Below the pieces are notes generated by a model, which was not told the DNA's origin, made no database searches, and worked only from the letters and a program-made list of their open reading frames with translations. Below, piece by piece: positions 1 through 62,515 of a stretch of DNA of 64,000 bases. Each line of letters opens with the position of its first letter. The stretch's first letter is position 1. A program made the position numbers and the translations under genes. Origin of the DNA: an uncultured Hormoscilla sp. (lineage in GTDB: Bacteria > Cyanobacteriota > Cyanobacteriia > Cyanobacteriales > Desertifilaceae); NCBI GenBank assembly GCA_963921275.4, contig OZ001293.3, forward strand, positions 1,792,001 to 1,856,000, in the 5' to 3' direction.

Positions 1-1239
1 TGCCGCCGCATTCAATGTCGCCTCATTCACTCTAAAATTATGTGCGTTCTTAGAGCGGTCAAAAGAGCGTAGCACCATTGCCGTCGTCAGTAGCACCACC
101 ACCAATGACACCATTGTCATTGTCGGCAATACAAAGCCTCTCGTTGCCTGGCCCCGCCTACCTCTCCTTTTCAGTGGATGGGGTCGAGCCGGGAATCGCT
201 TCCCGACCCTCCCTTGAGGAACCGGACTTGCGATTTTCACCGCATCCGGCTACTGGGTACTAGGCCCTTTTCATAGGTAGACTTAATAGGAATTACTTCC
301 GTTAGCCCTTGCCGCCTGTCTTTTCTTCCTTTCCTGGTTTAGCAAGTGGTTGTTCTGATAACCGTTAGTATCACCATTTTCAAGTCAGTTTTACCAGTTA
401 TCCATACCTTATCCTCCACTTGCGTTTCGGATTAGTTCCGTGGCTTTTTAGGATTACTCATTCCAGCAGCTTCCTAGTATCACCGACCCACGTCAGCGCT
501 GGCTACCCAGCATCATCTACATTACTGTAGATGTTATCCCAGGAATTACCCCGGGCATTCGCTTCTTGGGCCATCCCTCCCCCCGTGGCTTGCGCTTAAC
601 ATCTAACTTGTCCTGATGGACAGCACACGAGAGGTTACTTCGTTCCCTAACAACATTTCGCGATACCTTTAGGTCCACACTATACCCCGGGAGCTATTTG
701 AGTACTATATTAGCCAGAGTCTAAAACTAATACTAGCTACCATTTCCTTTTTAGGCCAGCGCATATAGCCTTATTTCGCTGGTTCCTTATAACGAGGCTT
801 GCACATGTTTGCCTGCTCTAACCTTGGATATCTTTCCTAGCGGCGTCACCGGCTTAGGCTGCCAGTTATCCTACATTTGAGTCCTCGCTTAGCACCACGA
901 TGATGTCGCTTCGTAGCACCGAGGACCGGTGTCACCCCCGTACCTGGGGGGAGGGGAATTTAACCCCTATGCGGTCAGAGTTCCCGGCTAATGAAACCGG
1001 GCTAGCGTTCCGTGTTTGACCACGTTAGGCTAGAACGAATCGCACAGACTCCGCCGCAGGTTACCCGCCAACTTTTTGGTCATTTTTTTAGTCAACCTAC
1101 TCAACCGCCGCCACAGCCGAGACAATATGACTTGGACTTTCCCGATTTTTCCGGAACGGTGCATCTTGCCCATGTACCTAGTAGCTTTCCCGAGCGCGTA
1201 GCGTGCGCGCAGCGCAATCTTCCGCTGGATATATGCCAT
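1..1239 (-). CDS. hpsA: Hormogonium polysaccharide biosynthesis protein HpsA, N-terminal part, split by a group II intron (exon 1 1239-1046, exon 2 175 to beyond base 1)
   Basis: Joining 1046 to 175 gives ...KKLAGNLRRSL-LKRRGRRGQATRGFVLPTMTMVSLVVVLLTTAMVLRSFDRSKNAHNFRVNEATLNAAA. The GFVLPT..VSLVVVLL..RSF.R.KNA...RVNE..LNAA pilin-like N-terminus is what I recognise as HpsA. Runs off the window. Confidence 0.75.
176..1045 (-). mobile_element. ORF-less group IIB intron (870 nt) in hpsA
   Basis: Minus strand starts GTGCGATTCGTTC at 1045. Domain V is GTAGCCGGATGCGGTGAAAATCGCAAGTCCGGTTC; the domain VI hairpin ends CTCGACCCCATCC. EBS1 AGACTC (722-717) is fully complementary to the exon end GAGTCT. 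No RT ORF. Confidence 0.93.
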
Positions 1240-1728: not shown

Positions 1729-1847
1729 AAAACACCTCCAGTAGGCTGATACCACCTGTAATAATTTTACTAACCTCCATTATAGACCAATTTTTTTCAT
1801 GGGTCTGTTCTGCTGATAACCGATTTTTCCGGAACGGTTCGCTGATA

Positions 1848-1943: not shown

Positions 1944-3941
1944 TTATTTAGTCGCTTGCTCTGTCAAGCGCGTCAGCACTTGATTCGATCGTTCCACGAA
2001 AGCCTTCATCCCATCAGCGTCGAAGCCTTTTTGGGCCATCAGGGCCAGGTCATAGACATGATGGCAAATTAAATTAGCCAGTTCCGCAGAGGGAGATGTG
2101 CCTTCGCCGCCAATGATGCTACCTTGAGATAGAGTGGCCAAATTCTGGATCAGGGGATGAGCTGTATTTACCAGTAAGGTATGGTCTTCGGGGAATTTAG
2201 CAGTTTGTTGCTGCATCAAGGCATTCATCTCCTGCATCCGCCGCAGAAACTCGGGCAAGAGTACCATTGCTGGGGGAGAATCTTGGGGGTTGTCCGATTT
2301 CAGCGCTTCGGTGCGGATGGTGAGTTTCGACTTATTCAGGGCTTTTTTGAACAGTTCTTGGATCTGTTCGCTGCGGGTTTGATTGGTTTTCGGATCGACT
2401 ATTTCCGAAGCCTTCTCTTTGTCCAGCAGGTTTTCGTCGATCTCGGCGTCTACCCGGGAGAACTTCACGTCTGTGTGTTCCCGTTCTAGGAAGCTGATAA
2501 AGTGGGAGTCGATGAAGGAGTCCATATACAGGACTTCCAAGCCCTGATTCTTATGCAGTTGGATGTAGGTCGTCTGGGTAATTTCGTCGGTGCAGTAGAA
2601 GACGCGGTTCTCGTGATGTTCTTTGTTGCGCTCCAGGTATTCCTTCAGGGTAGTGTAAGTATTACCCTTGTCATCGGTGTTGGCCGGACCGACTTCTTGC
2701 CAAGCATCTCCCTCTTCTGCTTGCACTTGCACTTCAGTTGGTGGCTGTTGCACCGTTCCGGAAAAATCGGCTTTGCCATCCCAGGTGGTACGATAGATGA
2801 CGATCTCTTCCACTTGCTGTTTGAACTTCTCGTCGTTCAGGCAGCCAAACTTGACAAAGGTACCCAAGTCCTTCCAGCTTTTGATGTATTCAGCACGCTT
2901 GTCCCGGTATTGCTCTTTCAGGCGATCGCCCACTTTTTTAGCAATGAAGTCAGAGATGCGGCGGACGGTGCGGTCCATCTGCAAGGCGCTGCGGGAGACA
3001 TTCAGGGGGATATCCGGGCTATCGATCGCTCCGCGCATGGGTAGCAGGAATTTAGGAATCACCTCCTCGCAATGTTCCGTGACGAACACCTGATTGCAGA
3101 ATAGCTTAATCTGTCCCTTGGTGACATCCACATCTGGTCGCAGCTTAGGAAAATAAAGAATCCCATTCAGCAGGAAAGGATAGTCTGTATTCAGATGGAT
3201 CCACAGCAGGGGTTCTTCGGTGAAGGGGTACAGATAGCGGTAAAATTCCAGATATTCTTCATCTTTCAGGTCCCTGGGGGACGTCCGCCACAGGGCCTGT
3301 TGCTTGTTAACCTGCTCGCCATCCATCATAATCTGCACGGGCATAAAATCGCAGTAGGTCTTAACTAACTGCTTGATGCGTGCCAGTTCCAGATATTCTT
3401 TTTCTTCCTCGGGAAGAGTGAGGGTAACGGTGGTGCCGCGAGTGGTGCGGGATGACTCTTCTAGCTTAAACTCTGGCGAACCATCACAGCTCCAGTGGAC
3501 CGCCTGGGCCCCTTCTTGGTAAGATAGGGTATCAATTTCCACCTGTTTGGCTACCATGAAAGAGGAGTAAAAGCCCAGTCCAAAGTGACCGATAATGGCA
3601 TCATCGGCATTGCCCTGGTATTTCTCGATGAACTCTTCAGCGCTAGAGAAGGCAACTTGGTTGATGTATTTTTTCACCTCCTCTGCTGTCATGCCAATGC
3701 CATTATCGGAGATGGAGAGGGTCTTGTTGTCCTTATCAATGCTAATCTGGATTTCGGGAGTCCCAATATCGCCAGTGAAGTCATCGCTATGGGAGACCAT
3801 TTTCAGCTTGGCGATCGCATCTACTCCGTTGGAAATCAGTTCTCTGAGGAATATTTCATGATCCGAGTAAAGAGACTTCTTGATGATCGGGAATATATTC
3901 TCGGTGTGAATGCTGATTGTGCCTTGTTCTAGTACCGTCAT
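1944..3941 (-). CDS. htpG: Molecular chaperone HtpG (Hsp90)
   Basis: 665 aa; LYSDHEIFLRELISNGVDA, DNGIGM and IGHFGLGFYSSFMVA motifs. Confidence 0.97.
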   Translation of the reverse strand: MTVLEQGTISIHTENIFPIIKKSLYSDHEIFLRELISNGVDAIAKLKMVSHSDDFTGDIGTPEIQISIDKDNKTLSISDNGIGMTAEEVKKYINQVAFSSAEEFIEKYQGNADDAIIGHFGLGFYSSFMVAKQVEIDTLSYQEGAQAVHWSCDGSPEFKLEESSRTTRGTTVTLTLPEEEKEYLELARIKQLVKTYCDFMPVQIMMDGEQVNKQQALWRTSPRDLKDEEYLEFYRYLYPFTEEPLLWIHLNTDYPFLLNGILYFPKLRPDVDVTKGQIKLFCNQVFVTEHCEEVIPKFLLPMRGAIDSPDIPLNVSRSALQMDRTVRRISDFIAKKVGDRLKEQYRDKRAEYIKSWKDLGTFVKFGCLNDEKFKQQVEEIVIYRTTWDGKADFSGTVQQPPTEVQVQAEEGDAWQEVGPANTDDKGNTYTTLKEYLERNKEHHENRVFYCTDEITQTTYIQLHKNQGLEVLYMDSFIDSHFISFLEREHTDVKFSRVDAEIDENLLDKEKASEIVDPKTNQTRSEQIQELFKKALNKSKLTIRTEALKSDNPQDSPPAMVLLPEFLRRMQEMNALMQQQTAKFPEDHTLLVNTAHPLIQNLATLSQGSIIGGEGTSPSAELANLICHHVYDLALMAQKGFDADGMKAFVERSNQVLTRLTEQATK

Positions 3942-7445: not shown

Positions 7446-9634
<2,189 letters not shown>

Positions 9635-12711: not shown

Positions 12712-13067
12712 GATAGAGTCCAATCTCTTTTAGCTTCTTCGATAGTAGCAACTGAAGCAGGAACAACAGCTTGTGCTTCTACTATAGATTGTTCTAGTAA
12801 TTCTAGCATGGCAGGTGAAGCACTGGGATAGGATTCGGCAATCCGTAGTAGGAGTCTCGAAAAACGAGAGTAATAAGTTTGGGCCCGATCTCTAGTATTC
12901 TGGAGGAGATCGAAGTCAGTAATTGCCTCAGGGGTCTCACCATACTGTTCGAGTATAGTATATCCAGTCGAATTGGCTTCATTGATAATTGCCAGCAGCA
13001 GCGGCTGCAAGCTTCAAAAACCTGTGGTGATTTCTACCGTTCCGGAAAAATCGGGTAGCTGGGCTAT
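12708..13067 (-). pseudogene. Hypothetical protein with a damaged 5' end
   Basis: Open from 13010 (QPLLLAIINEA...YGETPEA...). The upstream part has ATA in place of a start codon, a 19-bp dispersed repeat and an in-frame stop. Confidence 0.45.
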
Positions 13068-16990: not shown

Positions 16991-17270
16991 GTGCGATTCG
17001 TTCTGGCGTAACTGGGCACCACGTCCAGGATAGTCAGGTGGGGTTTTACCCACAACTCAGGCGTTATGAGGATTAGATTTCCGTGCGATTCGTTCCGACG
17101 TAACTGAGTAATCAGGATAGTCGGGTGGGGTCCAAACCCACAACTCAGACGTTATGGGGGTCAAATTCCCCCCCCATGTACAGGGGTGACACCGGTGCTC
17201 TCCTCTCCGCGTGCGCTGAAGCGCGTACGCTCCGGGATGCGCTTCGGTGCTGTGGAGCATCATCGATGCA
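16991..17270 (+). mobile_element. Two nested 5' fragments of group II introns (twintron remnant)
   Basis: GTGCGATTCGTTCTGG at 16991 and GTGCGATTCGTTCCGA at 17083, both followed by similar domain I sequence. The inner one continues GGGGGTCAAATTCCCC...GGGGTGACACCGGT and then stops; no domain V/VI nearby. Confidence 0.8.
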
Positions 17271-22016: not shown

Positions 22017-22226
22017 CTGTTGAAGACTAAAGTCTTCACTACGAACCTGTTGAAGACTAAAGTCTTCACTACAAACCTGTTGAAGACTAAAGTCTTCACT
22101 ACAAACCTGTTGAAGACTAAAGTCTTCACTACAAACCTGTTGAAGACTAAAGTCTTCACTACAAACCTGTTGAAGACTAAAGTCTTCACTACAAACCTGT
22201 TGAAGACTAAAGTCTTCACTACAAAC
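22017..22226. repeat. Seven tandem copies of the 30-bp palindromic unit CTGTTGAAGACTAAAGTCTTCACTACAAAC
   Basis: Exact 30-bp period with one substitution; internal hairpin TGAAGACT-AA-AGTCTTCA; two related half-copies at 21950-22006. Confidence 0.95.
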
Positions 22227-22890
22227 CTGGCCCGATCGCGTGCAACTCTGCTTCCAGGCTTTGAGCGCGTCGTTCTGCGGCCTGTAGCAGTTCTTCTGGA
22301 GTCAGAAATCTTTTTCCTTGTTCGTCATACCAGTAAATCCATTCCCGAGTTATTCCTTGATAGGTTCCCATTTCGCTACCAATGCCCAAACCAATTTCTG
22401 GCAACCAAACAGGATTTGTCAACTGTCGCTGATACCTGCCATCCACCAAGCGATAAACTTCCAGAGGTGGTTTGCCGCGACGCATCGTATTATAAATTAC
22501 GTAGTACAGCACTTCCAATTCAGTATAGATGTCCTTCCTAAAGAAATATTCTCCTCCACCTTCACGGCAAATCACCTCTAGGGTCAAAATCGGCGGGATC
22601 TGCTTTTCTTCCCACATGACATAACTCAAGCGGAGTTCTTCTTCCAAAACTCGATCAACTCCCAAACTCAGAAACCCATCTGGGACGATCGCGGTTTCAT
22701 CGGGGTGATAATAAATCCCCAATGCAGCACCAAAAAACCAATCCCACCGTTCTCCCCAGATTATCGCCAGAGTCGCCTCCAGCAAACTGGGCATCAAATG
22801 TTGTAGTTGATTTTGATTATTCGCCGCCTGTTTGTCAGTGTCCCGTAACTCTTCAGCATCAGGTACATTGCGATCGGAATACTCGAACAT
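22219..22890 (-). CDS. Uma2-family (DUF820) endonuclease-like protein
   Basis: IVPDGFLSLGV, SYVMWEE, LTLEVI, YYVIYN; somewhat degenerate, and its stop codon lies inside the 30-bp array. Confidence 0.8.
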   Translation of the reverse strand: MFEYSDRNVPDAEELRDTDKQAANNQNQLQHLMPSLLEATLAIIWGERWDWFFGAALGIYYHPDETAIVPDGFLSLGVDRVLEEELRLSYVMWEEKQIPPILTLEVICREGGGEYFFRKDIYTELEVLYYVIYNTMRRGKPPLEVYRLVDGRYQRQLTNPVWLPEIGLGIGSEMGTYQGITREWIYWYDEQGKRFLTPEELLQAAERRAQSLEAELHAIGPGL

Positions 22891-22997
22891 AGTTTTTCTC
22901 TATCTCATCATTTGTAACCCAGAAACCCGGTTTTTTGTCAAAACCGGGTTTCTTAATTATAGCAGATCGAGACCACCCGATCGCCCGTCACCTCTTT

Positions 22998-23699
22998 TCA
23001 ATTAAGAGAGTCTGGATCTATGCCGAGCGATCGCAACTGTTCCGCCAGATATAAAGCGCGTTGTTCAGCTGCTTGGCGGAGTTGTCGCTCTTGCTGGGTC
23101 AATTCTTCGGGAGTCAGAAATCGTTCTCCTCGCTCATTATACCAGTAAAGCCATTCCCGCGTTATCCCCTGATATGTGCCTTTCTCTGTACCAATTCCCA
23201 AATCTATCTCTGGTAACCAAACCGGATTTCCTTCCTGCAACTGGTACGTTCCCTTCACCAATTTATAAACTTCTAGACGTTGTTTACGGCGGCGAAATGG
23301 ATTGTAAATTACATAATACAATATTCCCATTTCTGCATAGATATCCTTCTTTGATTTATATTCCCCACCCCTGTTCTTTGAAACCACCTCTATGGTCAAA
23401 ATCGGCATCACATTATTTTCTTCCCAGAGGACGTAGCTTAAGCGGAGTCCCTCATCAACCACTCGATCGACTCCCAAGCTGAGAAATCCATCCGGGCTGA
23501 TCGCCGGTTCTTCTGGGTGATGATAAATCCCCATGTCAACCCCGAAAAACCAGTCCCACCGTTCTGCCCAGATCGTCGCCAGTATTGCCTCCAGCATACC
23601 GGGAATTAAATGTTGTAATTGATTGTCCACAGGTTTTTCGTCAGAGTCAGGTAGATCTTCAGCCCCAGGTAAGCAGTCTAACAGATTGTACTTTAACAT
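22998..23699 (-). CDS. Uma2-family (DUF820) endonuclease-like protein
   Basis: LPDSDEKPVDNQLQ, PDGFLSLGV, IEVVS, GIDPDSL C-terminus. Confidence 0.9.
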   Translation of the reverse strand: MLKYNLLDCLPGAEDLPDSDEKPVDNQLQHLIPGMLEAILATIWAERWDWFFGVDMGIYHHPEEPAISPDGFLSLGVDRVVDEGLRLSYVLWEENNVMPILTIEVVSKNRGGEYKSKKDIYAEMGILYYVIYNPFRRRKQRLEVYKLVKGTYQLQEGNPVWLPEIDLGIGTEKGTYQGITREWLYWYNERGERFLTPEELTQQERQLRQAAEQRALYLAEQLRSLGIDPDSLN

Positions 23700-23941
23700 A
23701 AGCAGCTTCACCAGAACGATAATATAATTATACTCTATCTGCCAATTTTAAAACAACAGCATGATAATATATGAAATCAGTCAAGCGATCAGTTAAGTGT
23801 GGGAATAATGGACGCTACCATCGGACTGTAGCGAAAAAAAATTACACCCAAGGGCTTTTGCTGAATGCCGATCGCAGGGCAATATTGCTATACTAAAGAG
23901 ACGATTCTGCTTTAACAATGCCTTGCGGAGCAACTATCCTG

Positions 23942-24586
23942 ATGAGAGAGCGTATTCAGCAGCTAATTGAGAACCTAAACCGCACCATTGTGGGTAAAAA
24001 TGATGCCATCCGTTTAGTGCTGGTGTCTATACAAACTCAGTCGGAAATATCAGAAGAAGATCGGACTGAAGAAGATGAGACTGAGTCTTACGAAAAAGCG
24101 AAAGCACGTCAAGCTCAGTTACAACTCGAACTTTGGCACCTGACTGTCGCTCATGCTGTGCAAGGTATTTTGGATTTTGTCAAGATGGCCAAGGTCGCAG
24201 CTGAGGGTCAAGGAATTCCTACAGGAGTGGTATTTTTTCCCTCTGCTAACAAAATGATCGGTCAGGGGTTTGACTCTCGCTTGCAGCCTTGGGATCGGTT
24301 CCCTAGCTCGATGGAATGGCATCCTATGTCTTACGGTGTCTGCGGTAATGCTAGCTGCATTCTATCTGAGGTAAAGCGGGTACTAACTTTGGCTCCCGAT
24401 AACGCCCAGATCCAACCGGTCTTAGCAGGAACTTGGGGGCGATCGCGCAGCAATCGTCCTTCCCTAGAAGCACAAATGCAAAGGATTCGTCAAGTGGCTC
24501 CCCACATCCGCACTGTCAGCCATTTGGCCTATTCTTGGCAAGAACCAGAAATTGACCGCGATCGCATGCTTTGCCAATCGAGGTAA
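23942..24586 (+). pseudogene. Chimera: MoxR ATPase N-terminus joined to the C-terminus of a GH10-like cyanobacterial protein
   Basis: MRERIQQLIENLNRTIVGKNDAIRLVLVS (MoxR start, no Walker A follows), then LWHLTVAHAVQG...FDSRLQPWDRFP...WHPMSYGVCG...SHLAYSWQEP. Confidence 0.6.
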
Positions 24587-24848
24587 TGACCAATTGCTGC
24601 GGGATGCTGATGTAGGTTGGGTTTCGTGCCTCAACCCAAAATCAACAGAGTGCTTACGGTGGGTTAGAATAAGCTAACCCACCCGACAATTAGTAATCTT
24701 ATCTTTCTATGACCAATACCCAACTTCGCCAACAACTCAACGAGGAAATCGATCGACTCTCTCCCGGAGACCTCACTCAACTCCTCGAACTCGCCCGCCA
24801 ACTCCGCCAAACTAGGGAACTCAAACCCGATATAGAGTACGCTATGGC

Positions 24849-25082
24849 TTGGTCGCAGGGGAACATTATCAGGTGATTCGGACAGGTTGGCACAAGGATC
24901 GGCGGATTTATGGATGTTCGATTCATATCGATCTCAAGGGTGACAAGATTTGGATTCAATATGATGGCACTGAGATTGGCATTGCTAATGAGTTGCTCGA
25001 TTGCAATATATCCAAACAGGATATTGTGCTAGCATTTCACGAGCCTTTTGCACGTCAGTTTACAGAGTTTGCTGTAGGCTGA
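24849..25082 (+). pseudogene. xisI: XisI protein, 5'-truncated
   Basis: HYQVIRTGW...RIYGCSIHIDLKGDKIWIQYDGTEIGIANELL...DIVLAFH...FAVG; about 40 N-terminal residues and xisH are absent. Confidence 0.8.
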
Positions 25083-25166
25083 TACTATTTTTATTTAAAG
25101 ATCAATTATTCCAAAAACTGGACGATCCCAATTCGCGGGCGATCGCCTGCGAATTGGGATCGGTAA

Positions 25167-25957
25167 TTTTAATCGATGTCGTCCGGGTTAATTCCCATTT
25201 CGAGTAAACGCTGGACTAATTGTTCAGCCCGTTGGCGTTCATTTTCAGCCCGTTGGCATTCATTTTCAGCCCGTGTTCCGTTTGGGCCTGTTTTTCCAGG
25301 GTTTTGATTTTGGTTTGTTCTTCTTTAATTAATTCCTCCACTAACGGCGGATCGAGCAGTTCTTTTACTGATAAAAATAGCTGCTCAAACTGACCGGAAA
25401 CAATTGACGTATCTTCTGGAAAATCATCAAAACTATATCCTTCTTCCTTGCGAAGATTAGCACAGACTCGAACAACTTTATTTTTCGGGTCTACTATCCA
25501 ATATTCGGGAATTTTCTTCGTATTTATTGCGTTTAATCACATAATATTCCTGGCGATTGCTGCTGACAATTTCTACCAGCATAATTGGCTTTTCATCAAA
25601 ATCAAAAACCCCAGCCCCTGAGCGATCGCTGATTTGCTCCCAAAGACTTTGATGGCAAACGATCGCATCAGGAATTCGGGATGAATTTTCCTCGGTTCTA
25701 ACTCCTACAGTGGTTTTGGCCACCAAAGATAAATTTTGGGCAGCAAAGTAGCGCTGTAACTTGTAGACTAAAAATTCACATATTTTTGTGTGTTCTAGAG
25801 TTGGTGTGGACATCGGTATTAGTTTACCCCTGACTAATTCATAGATAACATCCGGTTCTCCTTCATAGGAGAGATATTCTTGGAAGGTTAACAGATGTTC
25901 CTTTTCTTGAGGTTCATTGATGGCCACCTCCGTTGCTGGGGCGACAGCTTGTGTCAT
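25167..25957 (-). pseudogene. Uma2-family endonuclease, frameshifted tandem duplicate
   Basis: 5' half nearly identical to 26194-27078; frameshift near 25515 after RNKYE and further indels in the 3' repeat region. Confidence 0.85.
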
Positions 25958-26193
25958 ATTCGACCTCCCTTGCGCTCGCGTTCATTGACTATCTTATCTT
26001 AGCTTATTGGACCTCTTGACCGTCAGCACAGTTGGGACGACCAGGTACAGACCTCATTTGCTGCAACACCCTCAACTACCTACAGTTGCGAGGGGTAGTG
26101 CTCCTGATGTAATGATAGCAAATCCACTAACCGTTGTTTCAGTGGGATATAATCATTACTTGTGGAGCGCTACCCTTTGGGAGGAAGGTAATT

Positions 26194-27078
26194 TTAATCG
26201 ATGTCGTCCGGGTTTACTCCCATTTTTAGTAACCGCTGGACTAATTGTTCAGCCCGTTGGCGTTCATTTTCAGCCCGTTGGCGTTCATTTTCAGCCCGTT
26301 GGCGTTCATTTTCAGCCCGTTGGCGTTCATTTTCAGCCCGTTGGCGTTCATTTTCAGCCCGTTGGTGTTCGGTGTCCGCCCGTTGGCGTTCTGAAAGAGC
26401 TTGTTCTTTCAGGGTTTTGATTGTGCTTTGTTCTTCTTTAATTAATTTATCCACCAAGGGCGGTGCGAGCAGTTCTTTCACAGATAAAATTAGCTGCTCA
26501 AACTGACGGGAAACAATTGACTGTTCTGAGGTAAAATCGGCAAGAAAACGATATCCTTCTTCATTGCTAGGATTAGCACAGACCCGAACGAGTTTATTTT
26601 TCGGGTCTACTATCCAATACTCGGCAATTCCAGCCGATTCGTATTCGTTGCGCTTAATCACATAATCTTCCCGGCGATTGCTGCTGACAATTTCCACCAC
26701 CAGAATCGGCTTTTCATCAAAATCAAAAACTCCTGCCCCTGGACGATCGCTTATTTGCTCCCAAAGACTTTGATGGCAAACGATCGCATCAGGAATTCGG
26801 GATGAATTTTCCTCGGTTCTAACTCCTACAGTGGTTTTGGCCACCAAAGATAAATTTTGGGCAGCAAAGTAGCGCTGTAACTTGTAGACTAAAAATTCAC
26901 ATATTTTTGTGTGTTCTAGAGTTGGTGCGGACATCGGTATTAGTTGACCCCTGACTAATTCATAGATAACATCCGGTTCTCCTTCATAGAAGAGATATTC
27001 TTGGAAGGTTAACAGATGTTCCTTTTCTTGAGGTTCATTGATGGCCACCTCCGTTGCTGGGGCGACAGCTTGTGTCAT
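26194..27078 (-). CDS. Uma2-family endonuclease with a C-terminal AENERQR repeat coiled coil
   Basis: SRIPDAIV, VVEIVS, GIAEYWIVDP; 21-bp tandem repeats at about 26245-26390. Confidence 0.92.
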   Translation of the reverse strand: MTQAVAPATEVAINEPQEKEHLLTFQEYLFYEGEPDVIYELVRGQLIPMSAPTLEHTKICEFLVYKLQRYFAAQNLSLVAKTTVGVRTEENSSRIPDAIVCHQSLWEQISDRPGAGVFDFDEKPILVVEIVSSNRREDYVIKRNEYESAGIAEYWIVDPKNKLVRVCANPSNEEGYRFLADFTSEQSIVSRQFEQLILSVKELLAPPLVDKLIKEEQSTIKTLKEQALSERQRADTEHQRAENERQRAENERQRAENERQRAENERQRAENERQRAEQLVQRLLKMGVNPDDID

Positions 27079-28622
27079 ATTCGACCTCCCTTGCGCTCGC
27101 GTTCATTGACTATTATATCTTATCTTAGCTTATTGGACATTTTTCCAGGAAGCCCCAAATACTGTAAACTTCGATCGATGATTTAGGATTGCTAGATGAG
27201 CGGTATTGTCGGTATTCTCAACGGCGACGGTCAACCCATTGACCCCGCCCTGTTACAGCAAATGATGGAGTTGATGGCATTTCGCGGCCCCGATGGCTGG
27301 GATACCTGGAATGACGGTTATGTCGGTTTCGGTCACGCCCTCTTGCGGACTACCTGGGAATCAGCAAAAGAACGGCAACCTCACAGTCTCGATGGGAAAG
27401 TTTGGATTACTGGGGATATCCGCCTGGACTGGCGCGAAGATTTGATTGACCAATTGCGTGCGTCCCGACGGAATCTAGAGAAGGACGTGACGGATGTTGA
27501 CCTGGTTTTGCACGCCTACTAGCTTTGGAAAGATGCTTGTTTGGAACGACTGAGTGGAGATTTTGCCTTTGCTATTTGGGATGGCCCCCAGCAGCGATTG
27601 TTCTGCGCCCGGGACCAGTTTGGGGTCGTACCTTTTTTCTATGCAACAATCGGAAAAAGCCTGATTTTTAGCAATACTCTCAACTGTCTGCGCCTGCACC
27701 CAGAGGTATCGGATAGACTTAATGAAGGGGCGATCGCCGATTTCCTGCTATTTAGCATGAATATGGATATGGCCACGACCACCTTCTTTGCCGATATCCA
27801 AAAGTTGCCCCCCGCCCACACCCTGATTTGGTCAGAGGGCGAGGTGCGCGTCCGGCGTTACTGGCAGTTGCCCGAAGCAGTAGAATACCTGCGTTACCAG
27901 CGCCCAGAAGAATATGTCGAGCAGTTTCGGGAGTTGTTCGAGCGCTCAGTTGCTTCCAGACTGCGAACCAACAGTGCGGGCACTATTTAAGCGGGGGAAT
28001 GGACTCCACCAGTATCGCTGCCACTGCCTATAAATTAATGACAGCAACGGGTTCCCCTGTTGATTTTCGGGCCTACGCGAGTTTCTATAAACAAGTCATT
28101 GCTGACGAGGAAGGGGACTACGCCGCACTGGTCGCTGAGGCGGCGGGTTTTCCTATTGAGTACCTAGTTGTGGAAGACTATTGGCAGCAGCCACCGATCG
28201 AACAACCGGAGTACATCGAATCAGAACCGCTGCTGATTCGCAACCAAAGCGTTGAGATGGAATTGAATCGGCGAGTCGCTGGGCACAGTCGGGTGCTGCT
28301 AGCTGGGTTTGGTGGCGATCCGGCACTTTATCCAGCGCCGTATTCCCAGAATAAGTCGCTTATGCTCAATCCTTTGGGTTACATTCGCTCTCTTCGTGCC
28401 AGGGTGAGGTTACGTACCCGGTTGCGCCAGTGGCTGCGCATAGAGCAGCAAGGGCGGTTCGGCTCCGCTCACCGCGAGCAACAAAAGATTTATTTTCCTG
28501 ACTGGTTTAACCAGATTTCGCAGAACGAGCGAACTTGAAAGCGCGACTGCAAGAAATATTGACTGCGCCACCGCAAAAAGACCGCTACGGAATGGCGACT
28601 GCTCCCTTGTGGTCCAATATTA

Positions 28623-29634
28623 ACTCAAGTTGCGACCTATAAAAATTGGATACAAAAAGCTATGATAAAGAGAATTATTTTCAACTCTAATCCCTTAGAT
28701 GTAACAGCATGAATTGACTTGGGAAACAAATTGGTGATTCGACTAAAACAGGTTTCAACTTGTTTTCTTGTTACTTTTTGTATATATTCAAAACAAGAAT
28801 ATTCTTTTCTTTTTGAGTTCTTTTTTCGCAAAGGTTTTAACATTATACTTGACGACTCTTTTAGTAAATCCTCTAATTGATAATCATTATAAGCTTTATC
28901 TCCATAAACTATTGAATTTGATGGTAAGTCAAAGCCAAAAGATTGCAAAACTTTAAAATCATTATAACTACCAGGATCTAGATAAAATTCTATTGGCTTT
29001 CCATTTTTGTTTACCAACATATGAACTCTTAATCCATAAAAATAACGTTTTTTACTGGCAATATACCCTCGATATTCTTCCTTGTTATAAATTTGGCATC
29101 TATCAATCCTAATATTATCACATACTGGCACCGGGAAACTATCAAGAATATATTCTTGACCCGGATTGAGCTCTTTAAATGTTTGAGCTATAACTTGGAA
29201 GAAAAACATCCAAATTGGTTCCTCAATATTGTGTAATCGACGATTGAACCTACTTTTACTTAACAGATTTTTTATATACTTGTGTTGGACCATAAATTGA
29301 CAAGAGCGATCGTGATGTCCTCCGAAAAAATATGCAGCAACTAATCCGACTGTCATCACTTCGGCATTGTTCATTTTTACTTGTGGATCTTCTTTTATAT
29401 TTAACGCTTTTAGTAGCTCGTCACAAAGAACAAAAATTGTTGTAATCATATCTTCCATCATCTACATCCCCCAGCAATTAACTATTATTTTAGTACATTA
29501 TAACCTATAAACAGCCAACCCGCCGTCTAGCACAAAAAAAATATAATTTTGTATCAAAAGCTACGAAATATCCCAAATATCTGTAAAGTATAAGTGGGTA
29601 ATTCATATTTTTTTTAATAGGTCGCAACTTAGGT
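28623..29634 (-). mobile_element. IS982-family insertion sequence
   Basis: TIRs ACTCAAGTTGCGACCTAT / ATAGGTCGCAACTTAGGT; 7-bp target duplication AATATTA (28616-28622, 29635-29641). Removal restores WSNI-IFAGSDPG. Confidence 0.92.
28637..29461 (-). CDS. IS982-family transposase (apparently intact, 274 aa)
   Basis: SKSRFNRR, ILDSFPVPVC, YFYGLRVH, YGDKAY, RKQVETCFS. Confidence 0.9.
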   Translation of the reverse strand: MMEDMITTIFVLCDELLKALNIKEDPQVKMNNAEVMTVGLVAAYFFGGHHDRSCQFMVQHKYIKNLLSKSRFNRRLHNIEEPIWMFFFQVIAQTFKELNPGQEYILDSFPVPVCDNIRIDRCQIYNKEEYRGYIASKKRYFYGLRVHMLVNKNGKPIEFYLDPGSYNDFKVLQSFGFDLPSNSIVYGDKAYNDYQLEDLLKESSSIMLKPLRKKNSKRKEYSCFEYIQKVTRKQVETCFSRITNLFPKSIHAVTSKGLELKIILFIIAFCIQFL

Positions 29635-30102
29635 AATATTATATTTGCTGGGTCCGATCCGGGCTTCAGTGGCTTTCCTCTTAAAGTTCGCTTTCCGTTT
29701 TTTGATTTGCGTTTGGTGTTATACTTATTGTCAGTGCCGCCAGAACCTTGGTTTGAAAGTAAATTCTTGCTCCGGGAAGCCATGAAAGGCACATTGCCGG
29801 AGTCGGTGCGACGGCGACCCAAAACACCGCTCAGGGGCCGTCCCCGTTATGAATTTGCCAGGCAGCGAGGGGTCGTGCCATGGATGGTAGAACTGGCAAC
29901 TACACCCGCGCTGAGTTATTATGTCAACAGCGATCGCCTGTTGCAAAAAATCAACGCAGTAGAGGAACTCACCCCCGCGAGCTACGATCGAGCGTCATTT
30001 GCTCTGACACTGGCTTACTGGCTGCGCCACCAACGCCGCCCGAAGACCAAGACCAGACCGGTTTGATCGCAAATTTGAAATCAAAAGTAAGGAGAATAAC
30101 CC

Positions 30103-31186
30103 ATGTCTAGAGTAACTAACAACCAAGAGCGTCCATCTAACCAAAAAGATTATCACAGCCCTAAATTGCGGAGTTTCGGCAAGGTTAGCGATCTGACCTT
30201 AACGAATAATCCTGGAGGTGGTTGTGCGATTCGTTCCGGCGTAAACCAGTAATGGTGAAAGTCGGGTCTGGTTCCATTAGCCAGATAACTCTGGTCATCA
30301 TGGGGGTTAAATTCCCCTTCCCCAGGTGCGGGGGTGACACCGGTCCTTAGTGCTGCGGAGCCACATCGCCGTGGTGTGGAGCAAGGACTTAAATGAAGGA
30401 TAAGGTCTCAGCCCAGGGACCGACGCCGCATGGCTGCGCCACGCTGCGCGATCGGAAAGAGGTTCATGGTTAGAACAAGCAAATCCCTGTAAGCATCGTC
30501 ACCACGAACAAGCGAAAAGAGGCTGACACGCTTGGCACAAAATGTGCATGTAGTCCGCGTATCAGTGCTAATCAATCACTGATATCGTACCCGAAACGAC
30601 TGCCGGTGTAGAGGTGAGACCTAAAAGCCTCGTGAAATGATACCAGGGAACGAAGTAACCCCGTGGTGCTGTCCTACCGACGGACAAGTTAGATGTCAAG
30701 CGCAAGCCCACGTGGGAGGGATGTCCTAAGAAGCCAAAGCCTGGGGTAATGCCTAGGATATGCAGACGTAGGACGGATATGGTAAGAAGTTCTGGGAGAT
30801 AGTAGCCCTTAAATGTACTAAACCAGGAGCAATCCTAGGGAGTAATGGTGGATTAAATCCTAACCGGGTAAAAATTCAGAGCCCCAAATATAAGGGACAT
30901 GTAAGTAAAGAGCGGATTTAGTGGTTTACTGGTTTACCCCCGCAAACCTTCCGGAGTTAGGTAGCTAACGGCTCCACGACTGACCATAAGGGGCAAAATT
31001 TCATAGGACAAGGGACAATGGGAGTAATCCAAAAGTTACCTGCCTATGACAAGGGCTTATCAACCAGTAGCCGTGTGCGGTTCCAGTCGCTCTTCAGGTT
31101 TCGCTCTTGGAGGGTTGGTACGTGAGTACCAGTTCGACCCCGACCCCTCTGATGATGGTTTGGGGATCGCGATTTACAATTCCTAA
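30103..31186 (+). CDS. Lasso peptide precursor (53 aa after intron removal; exon 1 30103-30223, exon 2 31146-31186)
   Basis: AAGGAG RBS, directly downstream of the cyclase. MSRVTNNQERPSNQKDYHSPKLRSFGKVSDLTLTNNPGGG-SSDDGLGIAIYNS contains the YxxPxLxxxGxxxxxT leader motif. Confidence 0.8.
30224..31145 (+). mobile_element. ORF-less group IIB intron (922 nt) in the lasso precursor; domain V degenerate
   Basis: Starts GTGCGATTCGTTCC; first ~150 nt nearly identical to the eno intron. EBS1 AATCAA (30570-30575) pairs 5/6 with GTGGTT. Domain V reads TAGCCGTGTGCGGTTCCAGTCGCTCTTCAGGTTT; ends TTCGACCCCGACC. Confidence 0.92.
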
Positions 31187-42113: not shown

Positions 42114-42950
42114 ATGACAATTGAGTTTACTAAGTATCACGGACTGGGCAATGACTTTATTCTGATTGACAATCGGGCCTCGTCGTCACCCTTGATTACG
42201 CCGTCGGTAGCAGTAACATTGTGCGATCGCCATTTTGGCATTGGGGCAGACGGGGTGATCTTTGCCCTGCCCGGACTTGCAGACACTGACTATAGCATGC
42301 GGATTTTTAACTCAGATGGTTCGGAACCAGAAATGTGCGGCAATGGGATTCGCTGTTTAGCCCGGTTTATTGCCGATTTAGAGCCAGACGGCCGCAGTCA
42401 ATACCGGATTCACACTCCCGCTGGGGTCATGATACCTCAACTGACAGCATCCGGTCAAGTAACTGTTGATATGGGCATGCCCAAGCTGCTGGCGTCCGAA
42501 ATTTCGACTACATTAGCTGCTGCTGACCAAAAGGCGATCGAAAAGACCATAGAAGTAGGGGGGCAATCTTGGCTCGTCACTTGTGTGAGCATGGGCAATT
42601 CTCACTGTGTTACCTTTGTAGAGGATGTGGCAGCGATCGACCTGGAAACCATTGGTCGGCAGTTTGAACATCATACTGCATTTCCCCAGCGTATAAATAC
42701 GGAATTTATCCAAGTAATCAATTCAAACTCAATGAAAATGCGGGTGTGGGAACGGGGAGCAGGTGCTACTCTGGCTTGTGGAACGGGTGCTTGTGCAGCA
42801 GTAGTAGCGGGGGTGCTGACCGGAAAGTGCGATCGGCGCACTCAAGTTGAACTGCCCGGCGGTTGCCTGGAAATAGAATGGGCAACAGCAGGCAGGGTTT
42901 ACATGACTGGCCCTGCTGAGCGAGTGTTCTCTGGCAGAATAGATTTATGA
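42114..42950 (+). CDS. dapF: Diaminopimelate epimerase
   Basis: [34 protein letters not shown]. Confidence 0.97.
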
Positions 42951-42982
42951 GCGTTGGTGGCAAAACACAAGAGGGATGCGTG

Positions 42983-45137
42983 ATGGGTGGAGGAATTTAT
43001 CTGATTCAGGATAACGACCAGCTAGTTGAAATGACAGAACAACCCTATGAATCGGAAGAAAGACTGCAAGAACTGCTGGAAAAATATCCTAACCTCTTGG
43101 CAGGAGACCAGATAGATAGAGCAACGCCGAGACGATGGTTGTTAATCTCACGAGAAGTAAAATTACCTCTGGAAGAGGATAGCAATGAACAATGGTCTCT
43201 GGATCATTTGTTTGTGGATCACGATGCAATTCCGACCCTGGTGGAAGTCAAGGGGAACAGCAATACTCGCATCCGGCGAGAAGCGATCGGTCAGATGCTC
43301 GACTACGCTGCAAATATGATCGTTTACTGGCCAGTTGAGTCAATAGTTAGCCAGTTTGAAGCAAATTGTAAGTCTCAGGATAAAGATCCCGAACAGGTAT
43401 TTGAGGAATTTCTCGGGGTTGATGCTGACGAAGAGAAGTTTTGGCAAAAGGTCAAAACTAATCTGCAAGCGGGAAAACTGCGTCTTGTCTTTGTCTCAGA
43501 TGAGATAGTGGCGGAACTGCGGCGTGTGGTGGAGTTTCTGAATGAAAAGATGGACCCGGTAGAAGTATTGGGAGTGGAGATTAAGCAATACGTGAGTGCG
43601 GAGGGTCTAAAAACGCTGGTTCCCAGAGTGATTGGTAAGACAACAGAAGCGCAGCAGAAAAAATCCAGTGCGACTCTGGAGAGAAGACGCTGGGACGAAG
43701 TCTCATTCTTTCAGGAATATCAAGTTAGACAAGGTCCAGATGAAGCTCAGATAGCTAGAAAGATATATGAATGGGCTAAGAGCCAAAAAACATTAGTGGA
43801 AGTTCAGTGGGGTACAGGAGACACCTATGGCGGGTTTGTTGTTTGGGTGTCGGAAGAACCCCGATCGGCTTCTGAGCTGTTCCAGGTGGGGATTAATGGC
43901 AGACTACAGGTATCCTCTAGCACCTATGCAGCCTTCCCACAATTTAATAGTAATGAAAAATGGATGGAACTGAGAAGTAAACTGAGTGTCATTGGTCTGT
44001 CCCTGCCGATATCTCCTACTGAAAGAAGATTGACAACTTTTCAGTTGTCTAATTGTTTGCAGGATGAATTTGCCCTGGGGCGGGTGAATTAGGGGTCGAG
44101 CTGGGAATCGCTTCCCAACCCTCCCTTTCGAACCGTGCATGCGGTTTTCATCGCACACGGCTACTGGTTAGTTGGACCTTGTCATTGGCAGGATTACTGG
44201 GGATTGCTCCCTTTGTCCCTCTTCTTATGCAGTTTTTCCCCTTTATGGTAGTCGATAGGACTGTTTCGTATCTAGCTCCGGAAGGTTCGCGGGGGGTATC
44301 CAGGAAACCACTTATACCGCTCTTTGCTAACATTGCCCCTGTCTCGTCATTAGGGGACTTTTCAAGTTTTACCCGGCTAGAGTTTTAGTCCATATTACAA
44401 TCTAGGATTTCTCCTGATTTTTGGTACGTATTAGGGATACTTCCACCCAAGATTTCCAACTATATCCGACCCACGTCTGCCGGTACATTCCTGCACCACT
44501 TATACAAGGAGTTACCCCTGTCCTTTGCTTCTTGGGCCATCTCTCTCCACATGGCTTACGCTTATCATCTAACTGGTCCCTATCTCCTGACCACCGGTCG
44601 ATAGTCGAGTAGTTATGGACAGCACACGTGGAGTTACTTCGTTCCCTGGTATCATTTCACGATGTTTTTAGGTCCCTGCTTTACCCCGGGAGCTACTTTG
44701 AGTGTGATGTTGGCCATATGCAACAGCCAACACTAGCTACCATTTCCTTTTTAGGCCAGCGTGTAAGCCTTCTTCCGCTGGTTACACATAACGAGGCTTT
44801 CACAGATTCGTTTTCCTAACCATGAGCATCTTTCCTAGCGGAGTTGCCGACTTTGGGCTGTCAGCTATCCTACATTTAAGTCCTTGCTCCGCACCACGGT
44901 GATGTCACTCCGCAGCACTAAGGACCGGTGTCACCCCCACACCTGGGGAGAGGGAATTTAATCCCCATGATGACCAGAGTTACCATATTGAGCCTGATTA
45001 TGATTAGTTTTGGTTCTAAACATTCAGTCCAATTTTGGCTCGGCTTTTCCGTGTTTGTACAGGTTAGGCCGAAACGAGTCGCACTACAAACTTTTGATTG
45101 GGTGGTTGAGCAAATCTTACCTTCATCAGAGGCGTAG
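42983..45137 (+). pseudogene. PD-(D/E)xK (NucS-like) nuclease-domain protein; last 18 codons cut off by an antisense intron
   Basis: ESEERLQELL, LDHLFVD...LVEVK, GQMLDYAA. The ORF now stops at 44092; removing 44088-45084 gives ...ALGRV-IQTFDWVVEQILPSSEA*. Confidence 0.7.
44088..45084 (-). mobile_element. ORF-less group IIB intron (997 nt), antisense to its host gene
   Basis: Minus strand starts GTGCGACTCGTTTC. Domain V GTAGCCGTGTGCGATGAAAACCGCATGCACGGTTC; ends CTCGACCCCTAAT. EBS1 TGCATA pairs 5/6 with TTTGTA. Confidence 0.94.
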
Positions 45138-58006: not shown

Positions 58007-58953
58007 TCAAGGGGTGGCGAGCATTTTTTTTGCATAGTTGGGGTCAAACGGTTTTCCCGACTTCAAGACCCCATAAGCCAGACACAAGAGCTTGTGCATG
58101 GCCGCACAAATAATGGCTCGCGCCCGCTTTACCCCTTTCCAACAGGCGATCGCAAAATGCCGGGCGCACAGGGTTAAAACGTCGAGCTGACATGGCCGGC
58201 ATATACAATGTTTTACGAAGCTTAGCATTACCGGTCTTACACAGGCGTGTTTTGCCTCGTACCGAAGAGCCAGAAACCTGCTGCCTCGGTGTAACCCCAG
58301 CATAAGCAGATACGAGACTCGCACTATCGTAAGTGTCAATCTCTTCGGCTAGTAGTTTAGCAGCCGTCAGTTCACCCACTCCGGGAATCGACAGGAGTAA
58401 CTCCTGCTGATGCTTCAGGTTCTCATGAGTATCTATTAGCTCAGTAATGAGCTGTTTGATTTGCTCAATTTGTCCATCGAGAAAAGTAATGTGCTCTTCT
58501 AACAACTGTACAACACAATCCTGCTTAATCAAGGAGTTAAGCCGGTTGACTTCAGTCTGGCGTAGACTTTGCACTGATTCCAGTTGTCGAATCAATGCTT
58601 GTAGTTGCTGTATTTCTGGTGGAGATGGACTCCAAGCTGGAGGTTGATTTTGTTCGCAATACTGAGCAATTAGTTGACAATCCCCTTTGTCCGTCTTATT
58701 GCGAGACAACTTGCTTTGACCAAAAGCCTTAATGCAAGCAGGGTTAACAATACTGACAGTGTGTCCTTGCTCATACAACCATTCAGCGACAGCTTCGCCA
58801 TAACGACCGGTTGCCTCGCTCGCAAGCATGAACTTGACCTACCTTCTGCTTAGCCAACCACTCACCGAGTTGTTCCATTCCTTCTAATGTGTTAGAGAAG
58901 ATTTTGTGCTAAGACTTGCCCTCTAGCAACAAAGCTACATCGAAAAAATCTTT
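58007..58953 (-). pseudogene. IS110-family transposase pseudogene
   Basis: KDFFDVALL, EATGRY, KTDKGD, SIPGVG, AYAGVTP..SGSS, GNAKLRKTLYMPA; stop and frameshifts; 5' end lost. Confidence 0.85.
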
Positions 58954-59023
58954 ATTAGGGGTCGAGCTAGGAATCGCTTCGGTACCCTCCCGTTCGGAGC
59001 CGGACGTGCGACTTTCACCGCAC
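58954..59023 (-). mobile_element. 3' fragment (partial domain V and domain VI) of a group II intron inserted in the IS110 gene
   Basis: Minus strand GTGCGGTGAAAGTCGCACGTCCGGCTCCGAACGGGAGGG...CTCGACCCCTAAT directly followed by AAA GAT TTT TTC. Confidence 0.85.
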
Positions 59024-61645: not shown

Positions 61646-62515
61646 ATGAAAACCAGCAGTTCATCCGATTTTTCCCCAACGGTGTTTGCAGTTCAATTCT
61701 GGGGAGTGCGAGGCAGCATTCCCGCCCCTGGTGAAGAAACAGTCCGCTATGGAGGCAATACCTCCTGCATAGAAATGCGAGTGGGTGGTAAGCGCCTGAT
61801 TTTTGATGGCGGCACTGGTATTCAGATGCTGGCCCTGGATCTCAAATCCCACAGGCCTCTAGAGGCCCATCTGTTTTTTACTCACTACCATTGGGACCAC
61901 ATCCAAGGGATACCATTTTTTACTCCCATGTTTACCCCCGGCAATCGCATCCACATCCGGGGCAACACCCCACCACCAGAAAGTCAATCCCTGGAAGAGC
62001 ATTTCCTGAATCGGGTAATGCATGTCTATTCGCCAGTACCAACGCCGACATTGCAAGCTGACCTGAAGTTCTCTAAATTAGAACCGGGTGAGGTGATGAT
62101 GCTAGAGGATATTAGCATCGAAACAGGTCTGCTGAACCATCCCAATGGGGCGATGGGATATCGCGTTACCTGGGACGGACACTCAGTTGTTTACTGCACT
62201 GATACAGAACATTACTTTGATCGCCTGGATAAAGATGTGCTACACCTGGCCCGTAACGCCGATGTCTTGATTTATGATGCCATGTACACGGATGAGGAAT
62301 ATCATAACCCCAAAGCTCCCAAGGTGGGATGGGGACATTCCACTTGGCAGGAAGGGGTGAAAGTGGCCAAGACGGCGGGGGTGAAGGAACTGGTGATTTT
62401 CCATCATGAACCCAACCACAATGATGATATCCTCAATCGGATCGCTCTTACTGTCAAAGAGGCTTTTCCCCATGCTGTACTTGCCCGAGAAGGGATGATT
62501 CTGCCAGTAATTTGA
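61646..62515 (+). CDS. MBL-fold metallo-hydrolase (paralogue of 14301-15212)
   Basis: FWGVRGSI, THYHWDHIQG, WGHS, FHHEP. Confidence 0.92.
   Translation: MKTSSSSDFSPTVFAVQFWGVRGSIPAPGEETVRYGGNTSCIEMRVGGKRLIFDGGTGIQMLALDLKSHRPLEAHLFFTHYHWDHIQGIPFFTPMFTPGNRIHIRGNTPPPESQSLEEHFLNRVMHVYSPVPTPTLQADLKFSKLEPGEVMMLEDISIETGLLNHPNGAMGYRVTWDGHSVVYCTDTEHYFDRLDKDVLHLARNADVLIYDAMYTDEEYHNPKAPKVGWGHSTWQEGVKVAKTAGVKELVIFHHEPNHNDDILNRIALTVKEAFPHAVLAREGMILPVI

Follow-up and report, generated by a model that had tools for sequence, protein, structure and literature searches.

A probable 3′ splice site eight nucleotides past the domain VI adenosine in IIB2-like group II introns of Hormoscilla

Where does the group II intron that interrupts hpsA in an uncultured Hormoscilla sp. 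end? The locus lies at the edge of a stretch of 64,000 nucleotides (contig OZ001293.3, positions 1,792,001 to 1,856,000; hereafter the window), whose minus strand reads ...GGCUCGACCCCAUCC|ACUGAAAA across 168-190; an AU ends at 178, CC occupies 177-176, and A175 is the first exon base. By consensus, group II introns end in AY (Y, pyrimidine), and the unpaired adenosine of domain VI, 7-8 nucleotides from the 3′ end, is the branch point. The original prediction, made from the sequence alone, had placed the end after the CC and proposed a variant 3′ geometry. We consider it very likely that, in a lineage of IIB2-like introns without an open reading frame (ORF), the 3′ splice site follows the domain VI adenosine at a constant distance of 8 nucleotides (hereafter A+8, counted from that adenosine), and that the hpsA intron ends in CC. 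The features of this intron, I1, and of its host gene are listed below, EBS and IBS denoting the exon- and intron-binding sites.

1046..1239, minus strand: hpsA exon 1 (64 codons plus CU); its translation, MAYIQRK...NLRRS, aligns with the N-terminus of the orthologue P0001
176..1045, minus strand: I1, an ORF-less, IIB2-like group II intron of 870 nt in hpsA, from blastn within the family, frame and boundary reading, and Rfam RF00029
1..175, minus strand: hpsA exon 2, extending past the window edge, with A175 (IBS3) as its first base, from HpsA-type protein matches
840..845, minus strand: EBS2 of I1, CGCCGC, complementary 6/6 to IBS2 GCGGCG at 1057..1052, read by eye
717..722, minus strand: EBS1 of I1, AGACUC, pairing 6/6 with IBS1 GAGUCU at 1051..1046
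682, minus strand: EBS3 (U) of I1, in domain I, 3′ of the EBS1 hairpin, partner of exon base A175, from a covariation column
576, minus strand: gamma (G) of I1 in the joining segment J2/3 (..GAG[G]GAU..), partner of C176, from a covariation column
219..252, minus strand: domain V of I1, with the AGC triad and a GAAA loop, from the Rfam alignment (minimum free energy (MFE) -17.4)
181..213, minus strand: domain VI helix of I1 with a GCGA loop, from RNAfold and RNAalifold
184, minus strand: presumed branch-point adenosine in the domain VI internal loop, at position -9 (8 nt before the end of I1), from the domain VI fold
176..177, minus strand: 3′-terminal CC of I1, in which C176 is gamma' and C177 the penultimate base that replaces the consensus A, from frame, orthologue, gamma-gamma' and EBS3-IBS3

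The ends of I1 read GUGCGAUUC (5′) and ACCCCAUCC (3′), and the 5′ GUGCG begins at 1045, directly after exon ...CGGAGUCU. With the CC end (176), the hpsA frame is open over 64 codons upstream and 58 codons downstream, up to the window edge. With the AU end (178), the mRNA would read AGU CUC CAC UGA (...SLH-stop), so that translation would stop two codons past the junction. Exon 2 (174..1, minus strand) is matched by 52 HpsA-type proteins. The 123 amino acids of the CC model align end to end, at 159 bits, with P0001, the closest intron-less HpsA (90% identity), which reads ...KKLAGKRRRSLLKRGGRRGQATRGFVLP. Removal of 1045..176 from the window gene gives ...KKLAGNLRRS-L-LKRRGRRGQATRGFVLP, which is collinear with P0001 and gap-free at the junction; the junction residues S-L-L agree with those of P0001, and the LRSLL motif is found in many of the 52 orthologues. 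Excision of I1 at the CC end would therefore rebuild an HpsA N-terminus collinear with those of the intron-less orthologues, and the predicted spliced junction is CGGAGUCU|ACUGAAAAGG. The claim that the CC end restores the hpsA frame and the AU end leads to a stop is thus borne out both by the sequence and by the comparison with P0001.

We regard it as very unlikely that I1 ends at the canonical AU (178), which would make the two C's exonic and leave hpsA frameshifted and dead. The Rfam model does put its terminal AU on 179-178 without an insertion, the adenosine then standing at -7 as in the model consensus, and the gene might be decaying, since the gene call in the source annotation, P0006, is an HpsA fragment of only 408 aa. 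The stop expected two codons past the junction is nevertheless followed by 58 codons that have stayed open and 90% identical to the orthologue, and the pairing partners and sibling introns described below also speak for the CC end.

The intron belongs to a family. A blastn search with I1 as the query revealed, as its fourth and weaker copy in the window, a segment at ~30270..31141 (plus strand), together with remnants at 59022..58958 (minus strand) and 17142..17200 (plus strand). With their boundaries drawn, the other copies in the window are as follows.

8238..9136, plus strand: I2, in eno, tail ACCCCUAAU, domain VI adenosine 9128, from the enolase frames and RF00029 (45.0 bits)
44088..45084, minus strand: I3, tail ACCCCUAAU, domain VI adenosine 44096, from RF00029 (42.1 bits) and an orthologue C-terminus
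30224..31145, plus strand: I4, a decayed copy in a putative lasso-peptide precursor ORF, tail ACCCCGACC, domain VI adenosine 31137, from blastn and frames, the 31145 end by register
58954..59022, minus strand: F5, a 3′ remnant (half of domain V plus domain VI), tail ACCCCUAAU, from sequence, its 3′ boundary by register alone
17083..17205, plus strand: F6, a 5′ remnant (GUGCGAUUCGUUCC... through the conserved GGGGUGACACCGG box), from blastn and sequence

The four introns I1-I4 are 870-997 nt each. Because no ORF of at least 90 aa was found within I1, and no reverse transcriptase or maturase Pfam family among the 54 window ORFs scanned, we describe the introns as ORF-less; a maturase/reverse transcriptase would presumably be supplied to them in trans.

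Genome contigs were scanned with the conserved 17-nt box of domain I, which gave at least 31 loci, at least 12 of them true family members, all from Hormoscilla assemblies. Nineteen of the 31 loci listed were dropped as GC-rich, non-cyanobacterial chance matches: 17 had no GUGCGA upstream or no domain V-like motif, one (L004) matched only the domain V-like regular expression, and one (L005) only GUGYGA. At least eight relatives have both ends, with tails consisting of ACCCC followed by GUCC, GACU, AGCC (two), GACC (three) or UACC. Four further copies were left out of the counts, two that are truncated after ~195 nt (L024 and L029) and two that run off their contigs (L008 and L014). The two truncated copies share the 5′ exon and the first ~195 nt of the family intron, followed by unrelated sequence; further downstream, L029 has domains V and VI of another intron type with a canonical end, ...UUUAAU. 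A blastn search of a plasmid collection with the whole of I1 gave no match. The eight relatives and the four window copies constitute the sample of 12 introns used below. By their sequences they appear to be one lineage of ORF-less, IIB2-like introns, abundant also in Hormoscilla assemblies beyond the window.

The end assigned to each of the 12 copies lies 8 nt downstream of its domain VI adenosine, which is thereby placed at -9. The tails are NNCC (9/12), UAAU (2/12) and GACU (1/12). Eight introns have CC as the terminal dinucleotide at the A+8 end, two have AU, L025 has AC (tail ...UACC) and one has CU, so that the penultimate base is C in 9/12 and A in 3/12 (one AC, two AU). The consensus AY is absent in most copies, being found only in I2, I3 and L025. 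Ten of the 12 share a domain VI fold in which a basal helix of 3 bp (GGG/CCC) leads, through a 1x2 internal loop (A on the 5′ side, GA on the 3′ side), into a 10-bp helix; I4 and L003 deviate from it. The loop has four bases (GCGA in eight copies), and five bases (C plus NNNN) follow the basal helix. That the fragment next to an IS110 transposase gene shares this tail, as had been claimed, was confirmed for F5, which ends in ACCCCUAAU upstream of the IS110-family transposase ORF 58829..58044.

The Rfam model locates the end differently. Three window matches to RF00029 exceed its gathering score of 40, at 254..178 (minus strand, 44.4 bits), 9058..9136 (plus strand, 45.0 bits) and 44165..44088 (minus strand, 42.1 bits). 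The model consensus has six bases after the adenosine (A at -7); in cmscan, the AU of I2 and I3 was reached only with a 2-nt insertion, and the I1 match stopped at 178. Among the 11 family introns that the model hit, the match ended at A+8 in two, at A+7 in seven, at A+6 in one (the hpsA intron) and at A+16 in one.

An independent view of the 3′ end came from covariation. The 12 introns were aligned over 696 ungapped columns, and the pairings were evaluated by script against slid registers and 20000 shuffles. RNAalifold placed domain I up to ...GGGAACGAA, followed by the domain II hairpin, J2/3 (..AG[R]GAU..) and domain III. One column in J2/3, gamma, forms a Watson-Crick pair with the base at A+8 in 12/12 introns and is the sole such column of the 696: it is G in the nine introns that end in C and A in the three that end in U (I2, I3 and L007), and 89/20000 shuffles reached the observed value. 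A second column, in domain I immediately 3′ of the EBS1 hairpin, pairs with A+9 in 12/12 introns and is again the only one of its kind. This EBS3 column (U G A G A C G G U U U U against A+9 bases A C U C U G C U A A A G) contains all four base types and makes ten Watson-Crick and two GU pairs, a value reached by 0/20000 shuffles. I2 and L007, which are nearly identical around EBS3, have G and C there, respectively, tracking their first exon bases C and G. No column pairs 12/12 with A+6, A+7, A+10 or A+11; when the partners were slid to A+7, gamma paired in 9/12 and EBS3 in 5/12, and at A+6 in 2/12 and 3/12. No column pairs 12/12 with the penultimate base either, the best reaching 11/12. These pairings exceed what chance would give. 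In the hpsA intron the two columns fall on U682 (EBS3) and G576 (gamma), which confirms the U and the G that the original prediction had given for them.

The 5′ ends are fixed by two features: 68/72 EBS1-IBS1 positions pair across the family, and GUGCG stands at +1 in 12/12 whatever exon base precedes it. The target site of I1 is fully cognate (EBS1 6/6, EBS2 6/6, EBS3 U-A, gamma G-C). In the AU register, the partner of gamma G would be U and that of EBS3 U would be C, a mismatch; the family as a whole pairs there in only 2/12 (gamma) and 3/12 (EBS3), and each sibling with a testable host gene uses A+8, which again argues against a canonical AU end in hpsA. It is extremely improbable that both ends of I1 are shifted, so that the intron would be CUGUGCG...AU (1047..178). 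Such an excision would yield an in-frame product, ...RRS-P-LKRR, with the length of the orthologue and 156 bits as against 159, and shifted 5′ splice sites are known elsewhere (PMC4424553, as far as the available text goes). However, the 6/6 pairing of EBS1 AGACUC with GAGUCU requires an exon that ends at 1046, GUGCG occupies +1 throughout, the orthologues keep Leu at the junction (LRSLL) and not Pro, and both gamma and EBS3 misfit this register.

We also judge it unlikely that the AU (178) and the CC (176) are both used, giving either a 14-aa peptide or full-length HpsA and so throttling expression, or that the run of C's lowers fidelity. Precedents are found in the accessible parts of two papers: B.a.I2 has two 3′ sites 4 nt apart (PMC4424553), and the CC end of RmInt1, which lies among four consecutive C's, reduces fidelity in vitro (PMC4238363). 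The I4 tail, ACCCCGACC|CC, likewise makes a C run. At 178, though, gamma-gamma' would be G.U at best and EBS3-IBS3 a U x C mismatch.

Host genes of the sibling introns give evidence for the A+8 end that does not depend on hpsA. In eno, enolase frames of 264 aa and 165 aa are joined by the 9136 end (A+8) only, as had been predicted, and Pfam Enolase_N/C were found on both exons. The tail of L007, an intron in an inorganic pyrophosphatase gene, ends in ...GACU; stopping one base earlier, at the AC, would put the exons out of frame. When its two exons were searched separately against the PDB (exon 1 as its last 40 aa at E<=10; 70 aa of it gave nothing at E<=0.01), they abutted at A+8 with no residue missing or doubled in 10/10 chains matched by both, for example at 37|38 in 2prd_A and 38|39 in 3i98_A; in Pfam PF00719 they meet at positions 20|21. 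The predicted pyrophosphatase junction is ...GAUAUGCAA|GCCUUGAUC. Of the frame classes, only A+8 leaves L009 open (74+112 aa); its exons match no Pfam family. For L025, an end at A+8 connects with the exon-1 frame in which a region conserved with its paralogue L023 lies; exon 1 has only a weak LRR_10 match (E 0.075) in Pfam.

Two further boundaries were read against sequences that lack the intron. The host of I3 is a conserved plus-strand gene (42947..44087 plus about 45085..45137), to which the intron is antisense. Its ORF 42947..44092 encodes a conserved protein of ~381 aa with 7427 matches scored, the best being 99% identical, intron-less and from a Hormoscilla assembly. Deletion of exactly 44088..45084 makes the plus strand read ...ALGRVIQTFDWVVEQILPSSEA, the C-terminus of this 99%-identical orthologue, P0054 (17 aa), and a shift of the deletion by +/-1 would alter the junction residue. 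The boundaries of I3 are therefore exact. The original prediction had spoken of a host frame restored by splicing; its boundary stands, whereas splicing from the host transcript does not, because an intron antisense to its gene cannot be spliced out of the host mRNA. The insertion shortens the host protein by 17 aa. Together with P0001, P0054 provides the comparison with intron-less orthologues that had been suggested as a check, the first being collinear at the CC end and the second identical at the C-terminus. The other boundary is that of a nested family copy: L009 is a near-identical L013 into whose EBS1 hairpin a copy of 925 nt (L009:3287-4211) is inserted on the opposite strand, a twintron-like arrangement. 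At the DNA level, the filled (L009) and empty (L013) sites define the nested copy as GUGCGAUUCG...ACCCCGACC, with a 1-nt ambiguity, and its gamma fits (G-C).

The flanks of two introns resemble each other. The 16 bases 3′ of I3 (44072-44087, minus strand; UCACCCGCCCCAGGGC) match eno exon 2 after I2 (9139-9154, plus strand; ccUCACUCGCCCCAGGAC) at 14/16 positions by eye. The likeness is offset by 2 nt from the splice site, and in I3 it is the antisense of host codons (..ALGRV); it may reflect a target preference or coincidence. Upstream of the pyrophosphatase gene, at L007:1200-1490, a divergent intron body precedes two tandem domain V-VI units of the family, whose tails are ACCCCAACU and ACCCCAUCC; the second is also the tail of the hpsA intron.

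The end of I4 is less well placed. Its AC end (31144) gives UCC CUC UGA, as had been stated, and its gamma (G) and EBS3 (G) are compatible with both the AC and the CC end, so that EBS3 does not discriminate, also as stated. A search for homologues with the peptide of lasso exon 1 found nothing beyond the window's own 49-aa ORF. Since gamma and EBS3 fit either end and the precursor has no homologue, the 31145 end follows from register only, and not from register and frame as the original prediction had it. Domain V of I4 has lost its GAAA loop and most of its lower helix (MFE -6.9 kcal/mol, the other eleven ranging from -13.7 to -17.7), and RF00029 did not detect the intron even at E<=1; judging from this decay, I4 probably no longer splices.

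Several observations weigh against an end at A+8 or narrow its basis. By itself, the hpsA protein comparison separates the CC model from the CUGUGCG...AU model by one residue (159 versus 156 bits). The 408 aa of P0006 compare with ~1500-2000 aa in orthologues, and hpsA may therefore be interrupted again outside the window. The sample is small and includes close relatives (L017/L023/L025/L030; L009/L013), so the independent events number fewer than 12. L023 is open across its junction only in the A+7 class (143+338 aa). Compared with its paralogue L025, it has a 1-nt gap in a C run ~30 nt upstream, which shifts the frame of the conserved N-terminal region, and A+8 fits L023 only if this gap arose through misassembly or mutation. 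For L030 both classes are open (54 versus 37 aa downstream); its exon 1 encodes an inositol-monophosphatase-family protein, and its exon 2, read in the A+8 frame, matches neither a PDB entry (E<=10) nor a Pfam family (E<=0.1). L003, L013 and L017 have no informative ORFs. Finally, EBS3 U of the nested L009 copy faces U at exon +1, a mismatch.

How would such a site be chosen? We propose that three elements set it. The first is the fixed tail, in which the 3-bp basal helix is followed by 5 nt. The second is gamma-gamma', a Watson-Crick pair to which J2/3 contributes its first base (G or A) and the intron its last (C or U). The third is the EBS3-IBS3 pair, which involves the first exon base. On this evidence from sequence, splicing in vivo would occur at the A+8 end, with A184 as the branch point in hpsA. 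A broader proposal is that the whole cyanobacterial IIB2-like lineage has given up the penultimate A and its contact with the first intron base, G1, relying on the 8-nt spacer, gamma-gamma' and EBS3-IBS3, and that CC and CU ends splice efficiently and accurately in essential genes. The contact between G1 and the penultimate base parallels the GU-AG of nuclear introns. Because the introns sit in essential genes (eno, pyrophosphatase), the non-AY ends (CC, CU) would need efficient and accurate exon ligation in vivo. We find this broader proposal possible but lean slightly against it.

The finding matters mainly for annotation. Tools anchored on AY or on the Rfam model of domains V and VI put the boundary of this family 1-2 nt off, with the consequence that intron-bearing genes appear in annotations as fragments or frameshifts; hpsA (P0006) and the lasso ORF (P0053, a 49-aa call that runs into I4) are examples. 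The expectation that automated tools would misplace this variant geometry holds family-wide, RF00029 reaching A+8 in 2/11 introns. If the broader proposal is true, many 'frameshifted' genes of intron-rich cyanobacterial genomes are intact. The family is also a natural covariation series, in which gamma and EBS3 are tracked by the last intron base and the first exon base, respectively, and the penultimate position is occupied by C or A, and it is a test bed for the first-penultimate contact in the second splicing step, which was earlier probed mainly by mutagenesis and in RmInt1.

The window also contains other elements. An 18-nt repeat with the palindrome TTCCGGAA has five exact copies (0.01 expected) and two near-copies. 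One copy falls within hpsA exon 1, where the window protein has residues extra to P0001 (..MHRSGKIG..), and another within an HSP90-family ORF (1944..3941). At 27541-30222 lies a decayed lasso-peptide-like cluster, followed by a 40-aa precursor-like exon that is interrupted by I4; to this precursor-like ORF we applied by eye the leader motif YxxPxLx3Gx5Tx, which we take to be that of lasso precursors. From 22219 to 27078 on the minus strand, four Uma2-family (putative restriction endonuclease-like) ORFs stand in series, interspersed with 21-nt and 30-nt tandem repeats (22017-22229, 25223-25274 and 26248-26391). A 173-nt unit is repeated in 3.0 copies with 99% identity at 62511-63032 and adjoins a metallo-beta-lactamase-fold ORF. 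The repeat copies and the cyclase pieces are at the following positions.

1143-1160, 1425-1442 and 1821-1838, plus strand, and 2752-2769 and 13036-13053, minus strand: exact copies of the 18-nt repeat, from sequence
27541-27990, 27828-28538 and 29707-30066: asparagine-synthase-like pieces (lasso cyclase type), split by a DDE transposase ORF at 28637-29461 (minus strand)

How do these introns compare with known ones? By their 5′ ends and folds they resemble the cyanobacterial and chloroplast IIB2 (CL2) introns, such as Tr.e.I7 of Trichodesmium, which begin with GUGCGAUUC and have stem-loops at the 5′ base of domain I and an EBS3 (PMC4649490 and PMC8643678, in the parts available). The IIB2 consensus GUGCGAUUC, as given in the accessible text of PMC4649490, is exact in 10/12 introns, the others being I3 (GUGCGACUC) and L003 (GUGCGAUUU); with respect to the stem-loops described in the portion of PMC8643678 at hand, RNAalifold predicts two hairpins directly after UUCGUUC. 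Unlike the CL2 introns, the window family has no intron-encoded protein (no ORF of at least 90 aa in I1), and because the CL2 class is defined by its protein, CL2 is not assignable here. Like the derivatives of TeI3/TeI4 in Thermosynechococcus elongatus, which are numerous within one cyanobacterial genome, the family consists of many ORF-less, partly degenerate copies that presumably use a protein in trans for splicing and mobility (PMC2882425); those derivatives, however, are IIB1 (CL1-type), and the available text of that paper mentions no unusual 3′ end.

Altered 3′ sites have been reported in other classes. One published list, in its accessible part, gives only the class B 3′ extension, B.a.I2 and C.te.I1. 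Like B.c.I4-type class B introns (with a domain VII) and B.a.I2, the window family has its 3′ site off the AY that follows domain VI; according to the available text of PMC4424553, the shift is ~50-70 nt via an extra domain in the B.c.I4 type, and B.a.I2 has its two alternative sites, whereas in the window family it is 1-2 nt with no extra structure. Our literature search, whose scope did not extend to the curated intron database, found CC or CU ends, or an adenosine at -9, described for neither the IIB2 nor the ORF-less introns of cyanobacteria; the papers found give neither a tail length nor terminal bases for IIB2 introns, and none joins 'Hormoscilla' and 'group II intron'.

The closest precedent for the terminus is RmInt1 of Sinorhizobium meliloti. 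As documented in the available part of PMC4238363, this class D intron ends in CC, its last C pairs with a J2/3 G, its penultimate pyrimidine sets it apart, every substitution of the penultimate base impaired the second splicing step, and C runs like its own are present in a few other class D introns; the CC terminus is thus already precedented. The contacts at the 3′ junction, as set out in the accessible text of PMC3669008, are those of the penultimate base with G1, gamma-gamma' and EBS3-IBS3. Like RmInt1 and Sr.md.I1, Pr.ae.I3, Pr.vi.I1 and Zu.pr.I1, the hpsA intron has a CC end, a G-C gamma-gamma' pair and an EBS3 that pairs with the first exon base, insofar as the sources at hand describe those introns. 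RmInt1 is, in the same sources, a class D, ORF-containing, proteobacterial intron inserted in an insertion sequence, whereas the window family is IIB2-like, ORF-less, cyanobacterial and found in housekeeping genes (eno, pyrophosphatase), with a tail of 8 nt after the adenosine and a variable terminus; what it has in common with class D is the CC terminus. The CC end of RmInt1 is taken, in the text available, as a deliberate handicap, from which the window family would differ if its non-AY ends splice well in essential genes. The A+8 register and the non-AY terminus are a trait of this lineage and a variant of a known sort, in which the gamma-gamma' and EBS3-IBS3 contacts are standard.

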